A DNA stretch of 64,000 bases from contig CBDBCF010000001.1 of the NCBI GenBank assembly GCA_965202985.1, forward strand, positions 1,664,001 through 1,728,000, given 5' to 3'. The position numbers are program-made. Position 1 is the first letter of the stretch; each line of letters opens with the position of its first letter. Source of the stretch: Longimicrobiales bacterium (GTDB lineage: Bacteria > Gemmatimonadota > Gemmatimonadetes > Longimicrobiales > Gaopeijiaceae). This document shows positions 21,001-30,000 of this stretch, piece by piece.

Positions 21001-24000
21001 AGCCCGAAGGCGGAGGGCTCAGCCTGGAGAAGTGGTACTGCACGATCTTCCATCCGCCCTCGGCGTGCACGCGAGTCTCGGAGTAGCGCCACGTGCCCGA
21101 GATCGAAGGCTGGTCGCCGGGCAGGTGGAGGGTTCCGTCCACGTAGGCGACCGACGCGGCCGTGGCGCCGTGGACCTGCACGTCCAGATCGCGAACCGAG
21201 ACTTCGGCGCGCAAGCCGGCCTCGTAGGCCAACCGGAGGGCGGCGGCGTTGAAGCCGCGCGCCAGGGGAGCTCCCTGCAGGAAGAAGCCGCGAACGCCGT
21301 CGCGATAGTGGGCGGCCAGGCGCTCGAAGTCGCCGCTGGACCACGCGTCGAGCGTCTCCGACACGGCGGCGCGCACCTCGACGGCGGGCTGGGCGGACGC
21401 GGCTTGGGGCGTCGCGAGCCAGGCGAACGCCAGCAGCGTCGCGAGCCGTCCCGCGACGGTCGATCGCTGTCCAAGGGTCGTCACCGCATCCTCCTCTCCG
21501 CTCCCGCTTGAGTTCGGGGGACCGGTTCGCACCCGTTCAAGCGGCCCATCTACTATAATCGTTCCCGCAACCCTTCTCGGCCCGCCCCCTTCGGCGTTCG
21601 GTCGGCGTCGCAAGACTTGGACCCGGTCCGAGCGCCTATTGCGGGCGGCGCGACCGCGACATTCGCATGTCCCATTCCCGCTGGCGGCTTCCGAGCCTTA
21701 CCGTCGCGGTTTCGGCGCTCCTGGGCTGGGGCGTCGCCGCTTGGGTGGACTTGGCGCCCCGCGTGGAGGCCGACTTCTTCTTCGCGCCGGGAGACCCGCA
21801 GCTTCGGGAGTCGCGGGAGCTGATTGCGCGCTACCCCGGCGCGGGCACGGGAGACGCCGTGATCGTGCGGGCCGCGGCTCCGGCCACGGACTCGGAGTCG
21901 TACAGGGACCGGATCGACGCCCTGGGCCGGGCGCTGGCGGAAGTTCCCGGTGTCGCGAGCGTCTATTCGATTGCCGACCAAGACCGGACGAGCCCGTTCT
22001 GGAGCCGGATATTGGCCCCTGCGCCGGCGCGGGCGACGAACGTGATCGCCGTGCTGGAGGCGGAGCGGTCGGGGGGCGGCGTTGTGGATGCGGGCCCTGG
22101 TGCGGCCCCTGGCGTGGATGCGAGCGCCTTGATTCGGCGGCTCGAAGCGGTGTTGGAGGCTCACGAGGAAGACGACTTTGTGCTGCTGGCTTCGGGGACG
22201 CCGGTGGTCGTCGAACTCATCCGCAGGGGTTTGGCGCGGGACTTGGCGGTCTTCAGCACGGCGGCGCTCCTGCTGTTCGGTCTGGTGGCGATGGTGTTGT
22301 ACCGGGATGCGCGGCTCGTGGCCGGAACGCTGCTCTCGTGTCTCTGCGCCTGCGCCGGCACGTTGCTCGCGGCCCGGGCCTTCGGAATAGGGGTCGGGCT
22401 CCTGACGGCCAACATCGTGACGATCGTCTTCGTCCTTACGCTGTCGCACACGGTGTTCATCGTGGCCAACTGGCGGCGAGGGGGCGGCGCGGCCCAGGCC
22501 CTGGCGCGGACGATCGGGCCCTCGACGTGGTGCATGGCCACGACGGCCGCCGGGTTTCTCAGCCTGTGGACCACGTCGGCGCAGCCGCTTCGGGAGCTGG
22601 GCACCGCGGGCGCCCTGGGCACGGTCGTGGCGGCGGCGTCCGCGTTCGGCGTGCTGCCGGCGTGGCTGGGCGCGGCAAGGCGGTCGGCCTCGAAGGCGCG
22701 ACTGCCGCGTTCGCCGTTCGAGTCGAGGCTGCCCTTGATCCTTGGCGTAGTTGCCGTGGGCGTCGTTGGACTTGGGGTGCTTCGGCTGGACACCGACCCG
22801 AGCTTGCTGAGCTACTTCAACGCCGACGGACCGATCCGGTCGGGCCTGGAGGTCGTCGATCGGGAAGGGGGCAGCAGTCCGCTGTTGCTGGCTGTGGGCG
22901 CCGCAGACGGAGGGCGGTTGGACACGGGCGAAGGCTACGAGCGGATGTGGCGGTTCCAGGATTCGCTGGAAGCCGACCCGGCCACGGGAACCGTTCTGTC
23001 GCCGGCCCCGCTCCTTGCGCACGCGCGGACGCTGCCCCTTGCGGGGTTCCTGCCCGTGTCGTTGCTGGTGGACTTTCTGAACCGGCCCGAGTTCGGGGCC
23101 GTGGGGCGCGGGTTCGCGAGCGAGGACAGGACCGAGGTGCTGTATGCGGTCCGCATGAAGGAGGGCGGCAGGACGGAGCCGCGGGATTCGGTGGCCGCGC
23201 GGCTGGCGGCCCACGCGGGGGCGGCGGGGCTGGCCGTGAACGCGACCGGCGGGCTGTACGAGCTGCAGGATCGGCTGGGCACGCTGATCGCCGGAAGCCT
23301 CAAGGTCGGGCTCGGCGGGCTCTTGGCGCTGTTCCTGCTGGTCGGCGCGGGCGTGGCGCGCAACGCCGCGACGGCCCTGGCCATGCTCGCGTGCCTGTTG
23401 GCGGTGCCGTTGACCGTGCTGGGAACGTTCGGCCATGCCGGCGTGGCCGTGGACATCATCACGTCGCCCGCGGCGAGCGTAGCGCTCGCGATGGGCGTGG
23501 ACTCGATGATCCACCTGACCAGCAGGGTGCGCAGAATCGACGGAGGCGCGGCGCGTATCGGCGGCTCTTGGCAAGCGGCCAGGGCCGAACTCGCGGCCCC
23601 CGTAGCCACCGCGTGCGTGGTCATCTGCGCCGGGTTCGGCGTCTTTGCGTTCTCGGACTTTCCGCCGACGCGGCGCTTCGGGCTTGCGGTGGTGCTGGGC
23701 ACGGTTGCGGCCACGACCGCCGCGCTGGGCGCCTTGCCCAGGTTGATGACGCGGCAGCGGGTGGACGCAGCGTAGGGGTGGCCTACCGTTCCATCGCGTC
23801 GAGCTTGGGGTCGAAGTTGTCAAACGCCGACCGCACCAGCAGGAAGCCGACGCCCAAAGCGACGCCGGCGACGACGAGCACTGCGCCGGTCGCGAGCGCG
23901 ACGAGCCGACCCGGGCCAGCCTCGAGTGCCCAGCGCGCCCAGTCTTCCGGAGTGCTGAGCACCTCGTCGGCCACCAGTGTTGCAAATATCATTACCGTCG

Positions 24001-27000: not shown

Positions 27001-30000
27001 GCGGATGCAACGGAGCGATCTCCGAAAGACGCAGCGTGCGCGACGGCCAAGATGCCCAGGAGAGCCGTCGTCTTGCGCATTATGTTCGAAGTCATTTCTC
27101 TCTCCTTTCCTTATGAAAACGCGTCGACACAGGCTGCGATGCAGCCCGCAGCAACCATGGTAGAGCCCGGGCGAGCACTGGCAACCAAGATGGCGCCCCA
27201 GCCACCCCAAACAACGGCCGCGGCGCCAACCGCGCAGGCCGCGCATCCCAGGGCGCTCCAGATTCCCGCGCCCGTGAAGTCTTCTGCGGCAATGTCGGAG
27301 GGGCTTCGAGTCTCGAACGTGGAGCCGATCTCGGTGCTTCCAGCGGTCAGCAGGGCGCACAGAACGAAGGTCCAAAGACGTGATTTCTTCATGTTTCTCT
27401 CCTTTTGTTGTCGAGTTGCGTGTTCACCAAGTTGGCGATCACGAAAGCCTGGTAAGGGCCGTACGAACCAACAGGTACGCTTTGGAGATCAGAAGCACTT
27501 GCGTAAGGACTGCCATGGAGATGTACATTGCGCTTTCCTTTCATTTGAGGCGCTGAATCGGAGCGCGTCCAGGCGCTCCAGTTGGCGACGCCGGCGATTC
27601 CGGCGACCGCGGGGGGCCGAGGCCCGGTTTCGATCTTCCTGCCAAGTTTCTTCGCGTCAGTCCATGGGCTTCCTCCTTTCCAGGGAGCGGGGTTCCGCGA
27701 CGGCTGGCGCAGCGGACGATCCGGTGCTTTCGCGGAGGACGACGGCCTCGCCCGACCAGATCTTGCTGAATGCGGTGTCGCCGATCGTGTAACGACCCAC
27801 TTGGGGGTCCAGCACGGTTACCCGACCATCGGGCGTCCACTCCGTGACTGTCACGAAGTGGCTCCTGCGGACCCAGGCGATGAAGGGCTTCGGAGTCTCC
27901 GCTATGCCGCCGCGTCGTAGGCGGTTCAGGGTGAGAGAGAGACCGAAGACCTCGGCTGCCCGGATCAACCCGCGGGCCCTCGTGCCCGTCGGTCCCGTGC
28001 CTGCCAGCGCGCCGAGCGAATCCGTGGCCGGCGTGTCCAAGCCCAGCACCTGGAACATGTTGGCGAGAGCGGCAGGACCGCAGTCGCTCAGCGTGGATTG
28101 CAGCACCATGCCTTCGCGTCCTTGGTAGGAGCCCCCGTCGGCTGCTACTTGAATCCGCGCCGCCCACCTGCCCAGGCGGGCAGGGTCCACTGCCAGAAGA
28201 GCTGTGGCAGCGACCGTGAGGACCAACCCCAGAAGGGTCGAGGCGGCGAGAGTCCGGCGGCGGGCCGAACGCGGGGTCTGCGGCTTGGGAGCGGGCATCC
28301 GGTGTCGGGTTGCGGGTCGTTCCACGATCGAACGAAGGAACGATGCACCCGGGAATTGGGCGCTTCCATGCTCAGATCGGCCCGACTTTTTTCGCCCCGC
28401 AAAAAGGGCCGAAAATCGGCGCTCCGGAGTCCCGAAAACGGGGGCTCACCCCCCGAGTGCACCCCCATCGGGGCACTTCGCACCCCCGCTGCCCCCCCGT
28501 CGTGCCGACCGAGGCGGCTTCCGGCCGGGCGAGGCGCCTGCGGCCGACGAGGGTCCCATGCCGACGGACGTTCCCACCGACGGACGCTTCCAACCGGCGG
28601 GTGCTTCCAGCCGACGGAAGCTCTCCCCGGCCAGGACGCTTCGGCTGGCGGCCGTCGCCCACCGCCAGGGCGCCTCCCTACCGCGAAGCGCGCTTCGGGT
28701 CCCGCCTTGCGGCTAGAGCGCCTCCAGCGCGGCGAGGATGTCGGCGTTGGTGGGGCGAACCCGGTAGTCTTCCTCCACGAACCCCCAGCGCACGATCCCC
28801 TCCTGGTCGATCACGTAGGTGGCCGGGTGGGGTACGGGGCGGTTCGGGGGCGCGTCCGGGTTCAACAGGCCGTAGCGGTCGATCACCCGGTGGTCGGGGT
28901 CGGACAGCATGACGAAGTCAGGGGCCTCGCCTCCGTCGGCGACGATGCGGTCGATCATCAGCTGCTGCTTCTCGCGGTCGTCCACGGAGACGGCGACGAT
29001 CACGGTCTGGGCGGCGATCGCCGGGGGCAGCAGGTCTCTCAGCTCGCCGAGCTGACGGGCGCAGTGCGGTCACCAGTGTCCACGGTAGAAGACGAGGACC
29101 ACGTTCGCTGTGCCGCGGAAACCTGCCAGCTCCACGGTCTCGCCCCCGAAAGACTCCAGGGCGAAGAGCGGAGCCTCCGTGCCGGCCGACACCCGCTCCA
29201 AGTCCGTCGCGGGAAGGTCGTGGCCGTCGGTCGGCCCCAGGCTGGAGACTTGGGCCGAAGCCGTGCCGAAGCCGGGGAGTGCCCCGAGCACCGCGGCCAG
29301 GACGAGAGCGCGGGCGCCGTCTCGAAGGAGGCGCCGTGCGCGGAGGCGGGAGGTACTGAAGCAACGGGTCGAGGTCATGGTCCGGGGCTGTCGTGGTGGC
29401 GGGGGGTCAGGCCCGTGCGGGGACGCTCGCGTTCGCGGGGCGCTCTCCAAGTCCGGGCGCTCCCCTCAATTATATGGTCAAGCCGCGATCGGTGGGACGA
29501 ACCGGCTGTGGTCCGTCGGGCCGCGTGCCGCGGCTCTTCATCGGTCCGGAAGTCGTCCCGCGCAAACGAGTAGGCCGGCCGGGACGGACCGGAAGCGCGC
29601 CGCCGAATGCGCGCCTCCAGCCCGTCCATCGGCCGACCGCCTGCTGGCGGCTCCTACCGCGCCGCCGCCAGCGCTTGGTCCAGGTCCTCGACGATGTCGT
29701 CCACGTGCTCGATGCCGACGGACAGCCGCACCAAGTCCTCGGAGACGCCCGTGGCCTCGAGCTCTTCGTCCGACAGCTGGCGGTGCGTCGTGGTGGCCGG
29801 GTGGGTCGCCAGGGTCTTGGCGTCGCCGATGTTCACCAGCCGCGTGACCAGCTGCAGCGCGTCGATGAAGCGCGCCCCGGCGTCGCGACCGCCCTTGATG
29901 CCGAAGCTCAGGATGCCGGCCGCGCGGCCCCCGCAGTACTTGTCCAGCAGCGGCTTCTCGGGGCTGTCTTCGAGTCCGGCGTAGCGCACCCACTCGACTT

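Follow-up and report, generated by a model that had tools for sequence, protein, structure and literature searches.

Within the window, a stretch of 64,000 nucleotides from a Longimicrobiales bacterium (Gemmatimonadota), we detected an operon that, on balance, probably makes a two-component, disulfide-stapled hydrophobic antimicrobial whose maturation would take place at the periplasmic side of the inner membrane (Table 1). An independent assembly (run X1) was identical to the window over 23500-28383. The preliminary description had placed the system at 21667..28325. The operon part of this interval was retained, whereas the first 2.1 kb, occupied by a plus-strand MMPL/RND-like gene (71.5% GC versus 63.8% for the operon), was rejected as a system member: it lies on the opposite strand, is convergent, and is found beside only 4 of 46 loci. 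The proposed cluster of a stand-alone C39 peptidase, a thioredoxin, a Yip1 protein, and an ABC transporter was borne out by Pfam and NCBIfam matches and by conserved loci, and the ABC permease has to be added to the inventory.

Table 1. Positions of the operon and neighboring features in the window
Feature	Position	Strand	Description
MMPL/RND-like protein	21667-23775	+	PF03176 2.3e-12; convergent neighbor
Biosynthetic operon	23783-28325	-	8 genes in the order C39, three precursors, thioredoxin, Yip1, ABC ATPase, permease
ABC-2-type permease	23783-24481	-	232 aa; PF12698 8.7e-6, PF13346 1.4e-3
ABC transporter ATPase	24462-25187	-	241 aa; PF00005 1.9e-27; best NCBIfam PmtA 4.6e-40, below cut-off
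Yip1/YknW-like membrane protein	25213-25875	-	220 aa; PF04893 5.6e-5, NF052650 6.5e-8, both below cut-off
Membrane-anchored thioredoxin-fold protein	25878-26402	-	174 aa, CVHC; TIGR00385 DsbE 1.3e-4, below cut-off
Stem-loop	26439-26479	-	perfect 17-bp stem, no U tract; between precursor array and thioredoxin gene
Extra precursor C	26509-26766	-	85 aa; predicted cut EEVVGR↓G; core 36 aa, 26512-26619
Precursor B	26802-27095	-	97 aa; predicted cut EDPVGF↓G; core 48 aa, 26805-26948
Precursor A	27111-27392	-	93 aa; predicted cut EDFTGA↓G; core 51 aa, 27114-27266
Stand-alone C39 cysteine peptidase	27657-28325	-	222 aa, start codon uncertain; PF03412 5e-21

Precursor peptides

The three tandem precursor genes of 85-97 aa described earlier were confirmed as minus-strand ORFs. 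Each is preceded by an AAGGAG ribosome site and encodes a basic/hydrophobic N-terminus, an acidic or polar linker, and a Cys-bracketed core. Genome-wide, the pattern CxxC..Cxxx(x)C occurs in 4 of 175 small ORFs with a ribosome site and a signal-like start; because three of these four carriers are the tandem genes, the trio exceeds chance expectation. Cores A (C50xxC53-x30-C84xxxC88) and B (C56xxC59-x28-C88xxxC92) each have a net charge of 0 and a GRAVY of 1.35. Unlike these, core C (CxxC-x15-CxxxxC) is short and cationic (charge +4); precursor C belongs among the variable, lineage-specific extras. The suggested bracketing by CxxC and CxxxC therefore holds for A and B and fails for the third peptide. 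Similarly, the D-V-x-G-x-G motif stands as a family consensus, whereas none of the three window peptides matches it literally.

The motif can be read as a predicted double-glycine-type site, V-x-G-x↓G/Q, downstream of a signal peptide. Val occupies position -4 in 97 of the 134 motif-bearing representatives, and extras frequently carry VVGG↓Q. Position -1 is frequently bulky (R, Q, T); the usual residues there at double-glycine-type sites are G, A, or S. Among 150 representatives (86 of type A and 64 of type B), 133 have signal-like N-termini as judged by a hydropathy rule only. By the predicted cut, cores comprise 36-55 aa and start with Gly or Gln. The A and B cores average a charge of about -0.3 and a GRAVY of 1.3, and GxxxG is present in 53/86 and 41/64 of them, respectively.

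The reported lack of Pfam and NCBIfam matches was upheld for the three precursors: Pfam returned none and NCBIfam nothing better than E 0.1. No bacteriocin family was matched when 41 cores were compared with Pfam, and only one of 151 members touched one of the curated class II bacteriocin models of NCBIfam (GarQ_core, E 0.037). The literature search gave no match for the peptide family either.

A plain helical hairpin had been proposed for the peptides; the models of A and B show three helices instead (pLDDT 91-95 for core B). Fold searches, which bear also on the saposin-like fold of circular bacteriocins, gave generic helical matches only (Z ≤ 5.3), and the top covarying core pairs fit an antiparallel register weakly. 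The cysteine count is even in 124 of 125 cores, with certain extras holding just two. Given these even numbers and a dedicated exported thioredoxin, disulfides are favored; two of them probably link the first and last helices in a nested arrangement (C1-C4 and C2-C3).

Peptidase and loss of leaders

The C39 protein begins with an Arg-rich stretch and a single hydrophobic anchor. Its catalytic residues Q76, C82, H156, and D173 are intact, and this Q, C, H, D set is invariant in 21/21 aligned homologues. Its sequence (Pfam score 75.4 bits, cut-off 22) predicts an active peptidase of family C39. The ORF ends 135-160 aa past the domain start in all but one of the 43 complete loci, where the distance is 245 aa. 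An N-terminal anchor with N-in orientation was found in all 26 C39 and all 25 thioredoxin homologues, the latter also conserving CxxC; the start of the window thioredoxin was chosen from its ribosome site. No second C39 is present in the window genome. The best scores of the window C39 were to C39 domains of peptide exporters, and the nearest solved structures are the PCAT1, ComA, and LahT domains. The LahT pocket is described as binding the -4 position of the leader (PMC6363468), and cutting by a C39 after Gly-Lys is on record (PMC12457901).

To test the prediction that leaders vanish with the peptidase, genome G098 was examined. In both G098 and G099 (one contig each, 95% complete), C39 is absent and the precursors are kept, with A and B leaderless and starting right at the core. 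Remnants of the C39 gene were detected as its 3′ end in both genomes, its 5′ region in G099, and the anchor-coding stretch in G098. The two genomes still encode signal-bearing extras though they lack C39, and in their sister G097, which retains C39, A is leaderless and B leadered. Since G098 and G099 are sisters, the co-loss may represent a single event. This pairing of peptidase loss with leader loss is the best evidence for the mechanism and lends comparative support to the cleavage role assigned to the motif earlier. Together with motif conservation, it strongly suggests that C39 cleaves at V-x-G-x.

Distribution and divergence

Precursors were detected in 46 of 314 Gemmatimonadota family genomes, 44 of which also hold C39; two genomes have precursors without C39, and two have C39 without precursors, both at contig ends. 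The earlier figure of 28 of 313 genomes agrees with the count of precursor-A matches, except that one (G238/L025) is a chance match, its wide locus L053 containing none of the cluster genes. When 46 Gemmatimonadota loci were collected by C39 alone, 43 held precursors, 40 the thioredoxin, 41 Yip1, 40 the ABC ATPase, and 40 the permease, with profiles partly trained on those loci. In the three loci lacking precursors, C39 lies at a contig end. Close metagenome loci showed the same operon make-up in 19 of 20 cases, and the order is C39-A-B-(extras)-Trx-Yip1-ABC-permease. Instead of the 1-3 precursors per locus counted initially, the range is 1-6, built on a conserved pair (A+B) to which 0-4 variable extras are added. 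Strict profiles found both types in 34 of 43 loci, with A ahead of B in 34/34; the other nine mostly carry a divergent A, judged by eye. Presence is patchy across three genera (21/53, 0/19, and 3/3), and the precursor family falls into no fewer than 189 clusters at 50% identity. All Gemmatimonadota records among the matches are MAGs.

Between close relatives, the precursor array and the permease are locally the most divergent parts, with raised synonymous distance too, as might be expected of swapped alleles. The permease is hypervariable and extras turn over fast. A and B are kept class-wide at about 40% identity, and the cores are under purifying selection (dN/dS 0.30 and 0.33 in 10 disjoint pairs), with no sign of positive selection. 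As a point against the antimicrobial reading, divergence of the permease is out of step with that of the cell's own peptides: for L134/L137, cores are 94 and 82% identical and permeases 64%, whereas for L099/L103 the values are 48 and 33% versus 74%.

The stem-loop has a folding energy of -37.5 kcal/mol, compared with -15.2 ± 3.3 kcal/mol for shuffles, and the corresponding region reached z < -2 in 22 of 40 related loci. It is likely a transcript stabilizer or attenuator.

Proposed mechanism and alternative explanations

According to the proposed route, (i) Sec would thread A, B, and the extras out via their N-terminal signal or anchor; (ii) the anchored C39 would, with strong indications, cut after V-x-G-x and free the core; (iii) the anchored thioredoxin would form or shuffle two disulfides; (iv) by analogy, ABC ATPase, permease, and Yip1 could extract the hydrophobic peptides from the membrane for release and self-protection; and (v), the least supported step, A and B may jointly attack competitor membranes, with extras broadening the spectrum. 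Step (iv) has counterparts in PmtCD, a hydrophobic-peptide exporter that shields its producer (PMC9974410), in the Yip1 genes reported from gene clusters for circular bacteriocins and for leaderless ones (PMC8659200, PMC11580447), and in YknW, which functions in SDP-toxin resistance (PMC4887032). We regard Sec export, C39 cleavage outside the cytoplasm, and disulfide formation together as likely; with less assurance, we lean toward a two-peptide membrane-active bacteriocin as the function.

The main rival to bacteriocin function is a surfactant or structural role, which we consider unlikely: after the same maturation, A and B would co-assemble as hydrophobin-like or surfactant-like products or as fiber or coat subunits. 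The cores are neutral and highly hydrophobic, unlike cationic antimicrobial peptides (although class II bacteriocins also carry little charge; PMC12648112), and are predicted to be Cys-stapled; A and B show class-wide retention and purifying selection, and the stem-loop 3′ of the precursors suggests that the peptides are perhaps overproduced. The exported C39 that has been characterized, FapD, serves structural fibers and is described as a periplasmic C39 needed for amyloid secretion (PMC5557850), and an Abditibacteriota sister locus (L154) holds a FilC/FapF-like gene (4e-7). However, the Gemmatimonadota loci share no such channel gene and no pilus gene, and the window C39 did not match the FapD model at E 1 (FilB model only 0.006), being closest to peptide-exporter domains. 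The fast-changing extras, the hypervariable permease, and the combination of Yip1 with ABC genes, a bacteriocin-cluster signature in the sources cited for step (iv), also argue against it.

It is improbable that the peptides remain in the producer's inner membrane as small hairpin proteins, whether as a channel, as a redox or metal-binding companion to the thioredoxin, or as accessory components of an ABC-Yip1 assembly, with C39 trimming a tether. Their hydrophobicity would suffice for embedding and no outer-membrane exit is encoded; moreover, Sec export would be dispensable, because G098 and G099 retain leaderless A and B beside their Trx, Yip1, and ABC genes. Up to four fast-changing extra paralogues, some with two cysteines, nevertheless fit a fixed complex poorly, presence is patchy, and leaderless bacteriocins exported by ABC transporters are known (PMC11580447). 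Slightly less probable still are pheromones marking strain identity. Double-glycine leaders also occur on quorum peptides (PMC6363468), and swapped peptide and permease alleles could encode specificity, but neither a sensor kinase nor a regulator recurs beside the operon, neutral hydrophobic cores of 50 aa would diffuse poorly, and peptides and permease diverge out of step. Modification of the cysteines by an enzyme not linked to the operon (thioether formation by a radical SAM protein, or glycosylation, giving sactipeptide-, ranthipeptide-, or glycocin-like products) is very improbable. The genome has 11 radical-SAM matches elsewhere, none within 140 kb of the operon, and about 40 flanking ORFs lack a Pfam match. 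However, the 127 flanking ORFs of 28 loci include no radical SAM enzyme, no glycosyltransferase, and neither a YcaO nor a lanthipeptide enzyme, in line with the lack of tailoring enzymes in the preliminary description; Sec export requires an unfolded chain, and even cysteines plus an exported thioredoxin favor disulfides. Sactipeptides and ranthipeptides were rejected as a class since a linked radical SAM maturase is absent from operon and flanks.

Comparison with known systems

Double-glycine-processed disulfide peptides are already a known kind, so the label of a new class applies to the peptide family and its export route and not to the kind as a whole. Class IIb and Blp-type class II bacteriocins have two small hydrophobic Gly/Ala-rich partners, a C39 cut, no tailoring, and several paralogues. 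The window system resembles them in its paired hydrophobic peptides from different adjacent genes, predicted double-glycine-type C39 site, paralogues, and lack of a tailoring enzyme. It differs in a leader starting with a signal peptide, a stand-alone anchored C39 instead of an exporter-fused one, four invariant cysteines, a diderm host, and no Pfam or NCBIfam match. Alpha-hairpinins have CxxxC spacing in their first helix, whereas the window peptides have CxxC there, are modeled with three helices, and are hydrophobic and bacterial. The likeness to these plant peptides, helix-loop-helix folds stapled by four cysteines (PMC11591084), lies in the predicted stapling. The leader types of class II bacteriocins are covered in PMC12648112, which also describes these peptides as low in charge.

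Glycocins (sublancin, glycocin F, orniglycocin) share a C39-removed leader (predicted here) and thioredoxin-like genes, and have two nested disulfides and, in one case, cleavage after Gly-Lys (PMC12457901). In contrast, the window operon lacks a glycosyltransferase and a fused peptidase-transporter, and has other cysteine spacing, longer neutral cores, and two partner peptides. With circular and leaderless bacteriocins (AS-48, aureocin A53, and enterocin L50 groups; PMC8659200, PMC11580447, PMC10598978) it shares Yip1 and ABC genes, compact helical hydrophobic peptides, and leaderless variants; circular-bacteriocin clusters were the nearest named look-alikes in the Atlas (0.76-0.78), a lead only. 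Unlike circular bacteriocins, it has a dedicated C39 and thioredoxin, no SpoIIM/DUF95 match among operon or flank proteins, and ends that seem joined by disulfides instead of a head-to-tail bond. Neither a dedicated small immunity gene nor an outer-membrane channel recurs within the operon or beside it, which counts against the bacteriocin reading.

FapD and FilB, of the Fap amyloid and the putative Fil pilus, likewise are stand-alone, intact, extracytoplasmic C39s with Sec-exported substrates, features presumed for the window system; the substrate motif of FapD is described as still unclear (PMC5557850). By comparison, the window C39 is membrane-anchored, with short four-cysteine substrates carrying an evident motif and no FapF/FilC channel. 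The SDP toxin of Bacillus is a disulfide-bonded 42-aa peptide, with YknW part of the protecting transporter YknWXYZ (PMC4887032). The likeness lies in a disulfide-type peptide (predicted here) with a Yip1 protein, whereas SDP has one disulfide, one peptide, a MacAB-type transporter with fusion protein, and no C39.

Exported C39 peptidases in other phyla

Mining tools set double-glycine and Sec leaders apart as alternatives (PMC12648112); the present family combines features of both and escapes Pfam and NCBIfam. For the exported C39, an evident substrate motif and a natural test, peptidase loss accompanying leader loss, are gained. We tentatively propose, at somewhat less than even confidence, a new logic for secreted peptides of diderm bacteria in which the double-glycine step takes place outside the cytoplasm, through a hybrid leader of signal peptide and V-x-G-x and an exported stand-alone C39, yielding in Gemmatimonadota a two-component, disulfide-stapled antimicrobial with leaderless versions as well, and unrelated cores in three other phyla. 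In PMC11316326, bacteriocins of Gemmatimonadota are described from annotation only; the peptides, if antibacterial, would add a class to this phylum. With 36-55 aa and disulfides as the sole predicted modification, the cores are directly synthesizable for testing. In Acidobacteriota, Ca. Neomarinimicrobiota, and Abditibacteriota, unrelated cores are found with the same type of leader and C39; if the proposal is true, the exported C39 could therefore serve as a mining handle for a hidden peptide set. The Acidobacteriota-type sister locus L222 holds a thioredoxin, an anchored C39, an ABC transporter, and two signal-peptide precursors with Cys/Gly-rich cores.

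Organization of the operon

The operon consists of eight genes read in the same direction (see table), among them three precursor genes (the conserved types A and B and a further one, C) that share an AAGGAG ribosome site. The thioredoxin, Yip1, ATPase and permease genes overlapped or almost touched each other. An independent assembly was identical to the window over 23500-28383, with zero differences. The GC content of the operon stretch was 63.8%, compared with 71.5% for the neighbouring MMPL gene. Although this gene lies within the interval given in the preliminary description, it was present in only 4 of 46 loci and lies on the opposite strand, which rules it out as an operon member and makes it a neighbour. 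The earlier separation of the operon from the DUF5128 cassettes was borne out, as the 36 DUF5128 matches of the genome sit elsewhere (the nearest about 25 kb off). These matches are to beta-propellers, in our judgement an unusually large expansion.

In the window, a strong stem-loop lies 3′ of the last precursor gene; at least 22 of 40 loci have one as well. A scan for sigma-70 promoters returned one site versus 0.3 expected; it was intragenic and was discounted.

Features of the operon, the window and the compared loci
Locus	Coordinates	Strand	Feature	Remarks
Window	28325 to 23783	-	Operon	Eight genes
Window		-	C39 peptidase	First gene; Pfam 5e-21
Window		-	Three small ORFs (93, 97, 85 aa)	After C39; precursors
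Window	27389-27544		51-aa ORF	In the C39/A gap; unmatched in Pfam and NCBIfam
Window		-	Thioredoxin-fold protein	After precursors; DsbE model 1.3e-4
Window		-	Yip1/YknW-like protein	After thioredoxin; 6.5e-8
Window	end at 23783	-	ABC ATPase, then ABC-2 permease	Operon end
Window	28713-29378	-	AhpC/TSA-family protein	One in-frame TGA at redox motif splits ORF
Window	32468-33853	-	ORF with SPPY motif	Inside first lower-GC segment
Window	~32000-35000, 42000-52000, 57000-63000		Lower-GC segments	53-65%
L177	8100-8900		Genus g19 locus	
L048	8100-8800		Genus g19 locus	
L043	7600-8900		Genus g19 locus	
L099	10425-12480		Disrupted copy	Insertion of ~1.5 kb in Yip1
L110	8580-11664		Disrupted copy	Insertion of ~2.7 kb between A and B; A truncated
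L118	8925-9041		Disrupted copy	Truncated B
L222	371-4855		Anchored thioredoxin, anchored C39, two precursors, ABC transporter	First site EFVGL|G
L143	7830-10799		Anchored C39; precursor sites DVDGS|G and DVVGG|D	Ca. Neomarinimicrobiota
L154	7496-9597		Signal peptide and exported C39	Abditibacteriota/Armatimonadota
L155, L156, L164, L169, L220, L238, L246, L248, L249			As L154	Abditibacteriota/Armatimonadota

The precursor peptides

The A/B precursors are a real, new peptide family. Those of the window were unmatched in Pfam and without a meaningful hit in NCBIfam, singly or as a family. The genome holds 175 small ORFs that combine a ribosome site with a signal-like start; four of them show the four-cysteine pattern, and three of these four are the operon precursors. 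A profile search recovered at least 189 clusters at 50% identity. Among the 150 cluster representatives listed, CxxC-x(27-32)-CxxxC was found in all, a start that a hydropathy rule scored as signal-like in 133 and the cleavage motif in 134, pattern and profile themselves selecting for these features. The representatives comprised 86 of type A (spacing 30) and 64 of type B (spacing 28), and A preceded B in all 34 loci where strict profiles found both.

The bracketing of the core by CxxC and CxxxC, claimed for all three window peptides, applies to two; the third ends in CxxxxC. The literal D-V-x-G-x-G motif was found in none of them, the actual sites being EDFTGA|G, EDPVGF|G and EEVVGR|G (bar, predicted cut).

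The A and B cores are about 50 aa long, with a mean charge of -0.3 and a GRAVY of 1.3. For the window peptides, the calculated core masses are about 4764.5 Da for A (51 aa, two disulfides), 4905.8 Da for B (48 aa) and 3872.5 Da for C (36 aa). The extras, i.e. variable further precursors, are shorter, and many begin with Gln after VVGG. Only two cysteines were present in 18 of 125 cores. By a heuristic count whose pattern misplaces a few cut sites, 4, 21, 4, 10, 5 and 2 of 46 loci carried 1, 2, 3, 4, 5 and 6 precursors, respectively.

Predicted models contained three helices for both A (pLDDT 77) and B (core 91-95), with CxxC in the first helix and CxxxC in the last. Disulfides probably form in the cores and would be nested; covarying pairs were weakly in line with this arrangement, the covariation itself being weak (79 and 56 sequences). 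A Foldseek search gave zero matches, and the best VIA-align Z scores (5.3 and 5.0) reflect generic helices; on these results the fold can be called neither novel nor known. Searching solved-structure sequences with the core profile and the thioredoxin returned nothing.

C39 peptidase and predicted cut site

Gln, Cys, His and Asp of the C39 peptidase were kept in all 21 aligned homologues, and the ORF ends shortly after the peptidase domain. An Arg-rich N-terminus followed by one hydrophobic segment was present in 26 of 26 C39 proteins and 25 of 25 thioredoxins, the latter with motifs such as CVHC, CPHC and CPYC. Membrane topology calls are based on the positive-inside rule, by which such an N-terminus with a single anchor would place both domains in the periplasm.

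On the substrate side, Val occupied position -4 in 97 of 134 precursors and Gly position -2, with a free residue (R, A, Q, T, S or G) at -1; the cut probably falls after V-x-G-x. The same Val -4/Gly -2 register is described for double-glycine leaders (PMC6363468), and cleavage by a C39 after Gly-Lys (PMC12457901) as well as a periplasmic C39 (PMC5557850) are on record. The operon enzymes grouped together in a C39 tree of 61 rows, but two long-branch rows fell among them, so that no origin is read from the tree.

Co-loss of peptidase and leader

The strongest test of the C39-motif mechanism is comparative co-loss. Across 314 genomes, C39 and precursors occurred together in 44, C39 alone in two (cut by contig ends) and precursors alone in two. 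The latter, G098 and G099, are sister genomes that still hold signal-bearing extras, two points that limit the weight of the comparison; neither yielded a C39 match. G099 encodes leaderless A and B. For G098, leaderless forms were predicted beforehand and found: A (52 aa) is coupled to an upstream stop, and B, without leader, is preceded by its own ribosome site. The leaderless proteins start no more than a few residues from the predicted cut. Compared with their sister G097, both genomes have lost the catalytic part of the C39 gene and retain its 3′ end, together with the 5′ region in G099 and with the anchor-coding stretch in G098 (44% over 54 aa). G097 itself keeps C39 intact; its A is leaderless, and its B has a leader.

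In genus g19, the passage from leadered to leaderless peptides can be followed stepwise, and the C39 gene is internally deleted in two of the three genomes. Further ORFs in this genus encode a signal peptide and an aromatic, Cys-rich core but lack the V-x-G-x motif.

Distribution and locus content

A query with precursor A matched 28 of 313 Gaopeijiaceae genomes (one by chance), and the core profile 46 of 314. Of 401 genomes sampled evenly across the phylum, 21 matched; six were outside the family, all of the same class, with five whole operons and one chance hit. The 45 best C39 relatives in a species-genome collection were all Gemmatimonadota-titled (Longimicrobiales, Gemmatimonadales and others) and all MAGs. 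C39 gave zero matches to plasmids. Occurrence was patchy (21/53, 0/19 and 3/3 genomes in three genera), and the flanking genes differ from lineage to lineage.

Gene content is conserved: the 46 Gemmatimonadota C39 loci comprised precursors in 43, thioredoxin in 40, Yip1 in 41, and ABC and permease in 40 each, with gaps mostly at contig ends and profiles partly trained on those very loci. Metagenome loci agreed in 19 of 20 cases. None of 33 other C39 loci matched the operon profiles, which means not matched by Gemmatimonadota profiles; one of them (L172) holds an analogous system. Rows L053/G238 and L097/G510 were left out as chance hits. Five loci (L126, L129, L132, L133 and L135) have an MprF-like lysylphosphatidylglycerol synthase gene in the upstream flank, which may reflect lineage synteny alone.

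Transport genes and divergence

The best score of the ATPase was to PmtA, below cut-off. PmtCD moves hydrophobic peptides out of the membrane and shields the producing cell (PMC9974410). Circular and leaderless bacteriocin clusters commonly contain Yip1 proteins (PMC8659200, PMC11580447), and YknW is part of the SDP-resistance pump (PMC4887032).

When close relatives were compared, divergence was highest in the precursor array and the permease. At 80-90% ATPase identity, identities were 58% for A, 47% for B, 56% for the permease, 84% for C39 and 80% for Yip1 (19 non-independent pairs). In two of six close pairs, DNA identity dropped to about 60-70% over the first 170 permease residues, where synonymous distance was raised as well; this pattern points to allele exchange. 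Positive selection on the cores was not seen (dN/dS < 1 throughout), nor was one-to-one co-evolution of permease and peptides, whose divergence was out of step.

Analogous systems outside Gemmatimonadota

Weaker C39 hits included other exported stand-alone enzymes adjoining signal-peptide ORFs. Anchored thioredoxin and anchored C39 occurred together in L222, L217 and L172, of which L172 carries an Acidobacteriota title. The L222 cores are Cys/Gly-rich and four-cysteine, unrelated to the A/B cores, and its first precursor had only two close homologues. L143 encodes two near-identical leaders; its first precursor is apparently frameshifted, and the second core is two-cysteine and Gly-rich. At the ten Abditibacteriota-type loci, a D/G-V-x-G-R/A/K site precedes a conserved Cys- and Pro-rich core with CGC and KPGYGFGTTGHYGPPGQG; the two precursors scanned had no Pfam or NCBIfam match, and a FilC/FapF-like gene adjoins the L154 system. 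All three kinds of precursor support the register of the predicted cut, and they show that the leader logic (signal plus V-x-G-x read by an exported C39) is wider than the Gemmatimonadota peptide family. The Abditibacteriota/Armatimonadota family is a separate system, possibly structural, and indicates that this leader logic can also serve non-antibiotic products.

Interpretation

We regard the A/B operon as a new form of peptide production by the double-glycine route, with a putative antibacterial function. Precursors would be exported by Sec, cut by periplasmic C39, furnished with disulfides and extracted by the ABC transporter, which may also confer immunity. We have good confidence in this maturation route; the whole reading, including the antibacterial role, we put slightly above even. 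Synergy of A and B, and killing, would be a guess by analogy. Two-peptide class II bacteriocins come closest in working but have a fused exporter. Circular and leaderless bacteriocins share the Yip1-ABC module, whereas SpoIIM was not found in the A/B operon. A literature search returned no description of the operon; subscription papers and supplements were outside its scope, and the supplementary tables of biosynthetic gene clusters in genome-mining papers may carry it under a generic label.

With cores this hydrophobic, A and B could instead be surfactant or structural peptides, which we consider unlikely beside a transporter module of bacteriocin type. None of the readings with release from the cell accounts for passage across the outer membrane; that the peptides reside in the membrane is improbable, and a pheromone role slightly more so. 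Disulfide handling would be glycocin-like, but the glycosyltransferase of glycocins is missing here, and radical SAM, which defines its own peptide family, was not found in the operon or its flanks either. As the preliminary description had held, the cluster has no tailoring enzyme: radical SAM enzyme, glycosyltransferase, YcaO and lanthipeptide enzyme were absent from all 127 flanking ORFs of 28 loci, and cysteine modification by an unlinked enzyme is very improbable.

Other features of the window

In several relatives, the operon directly follows the AhpC/TSA-family gene. Reading the TGA of this gene as selenocysteine gives a single 221-aa ORF with UxxC, and the same TGA is present in G098; the product is likely a selenoprotein. 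The ORF with the SPPY motif presumably resembles a DNA methyltransferase.
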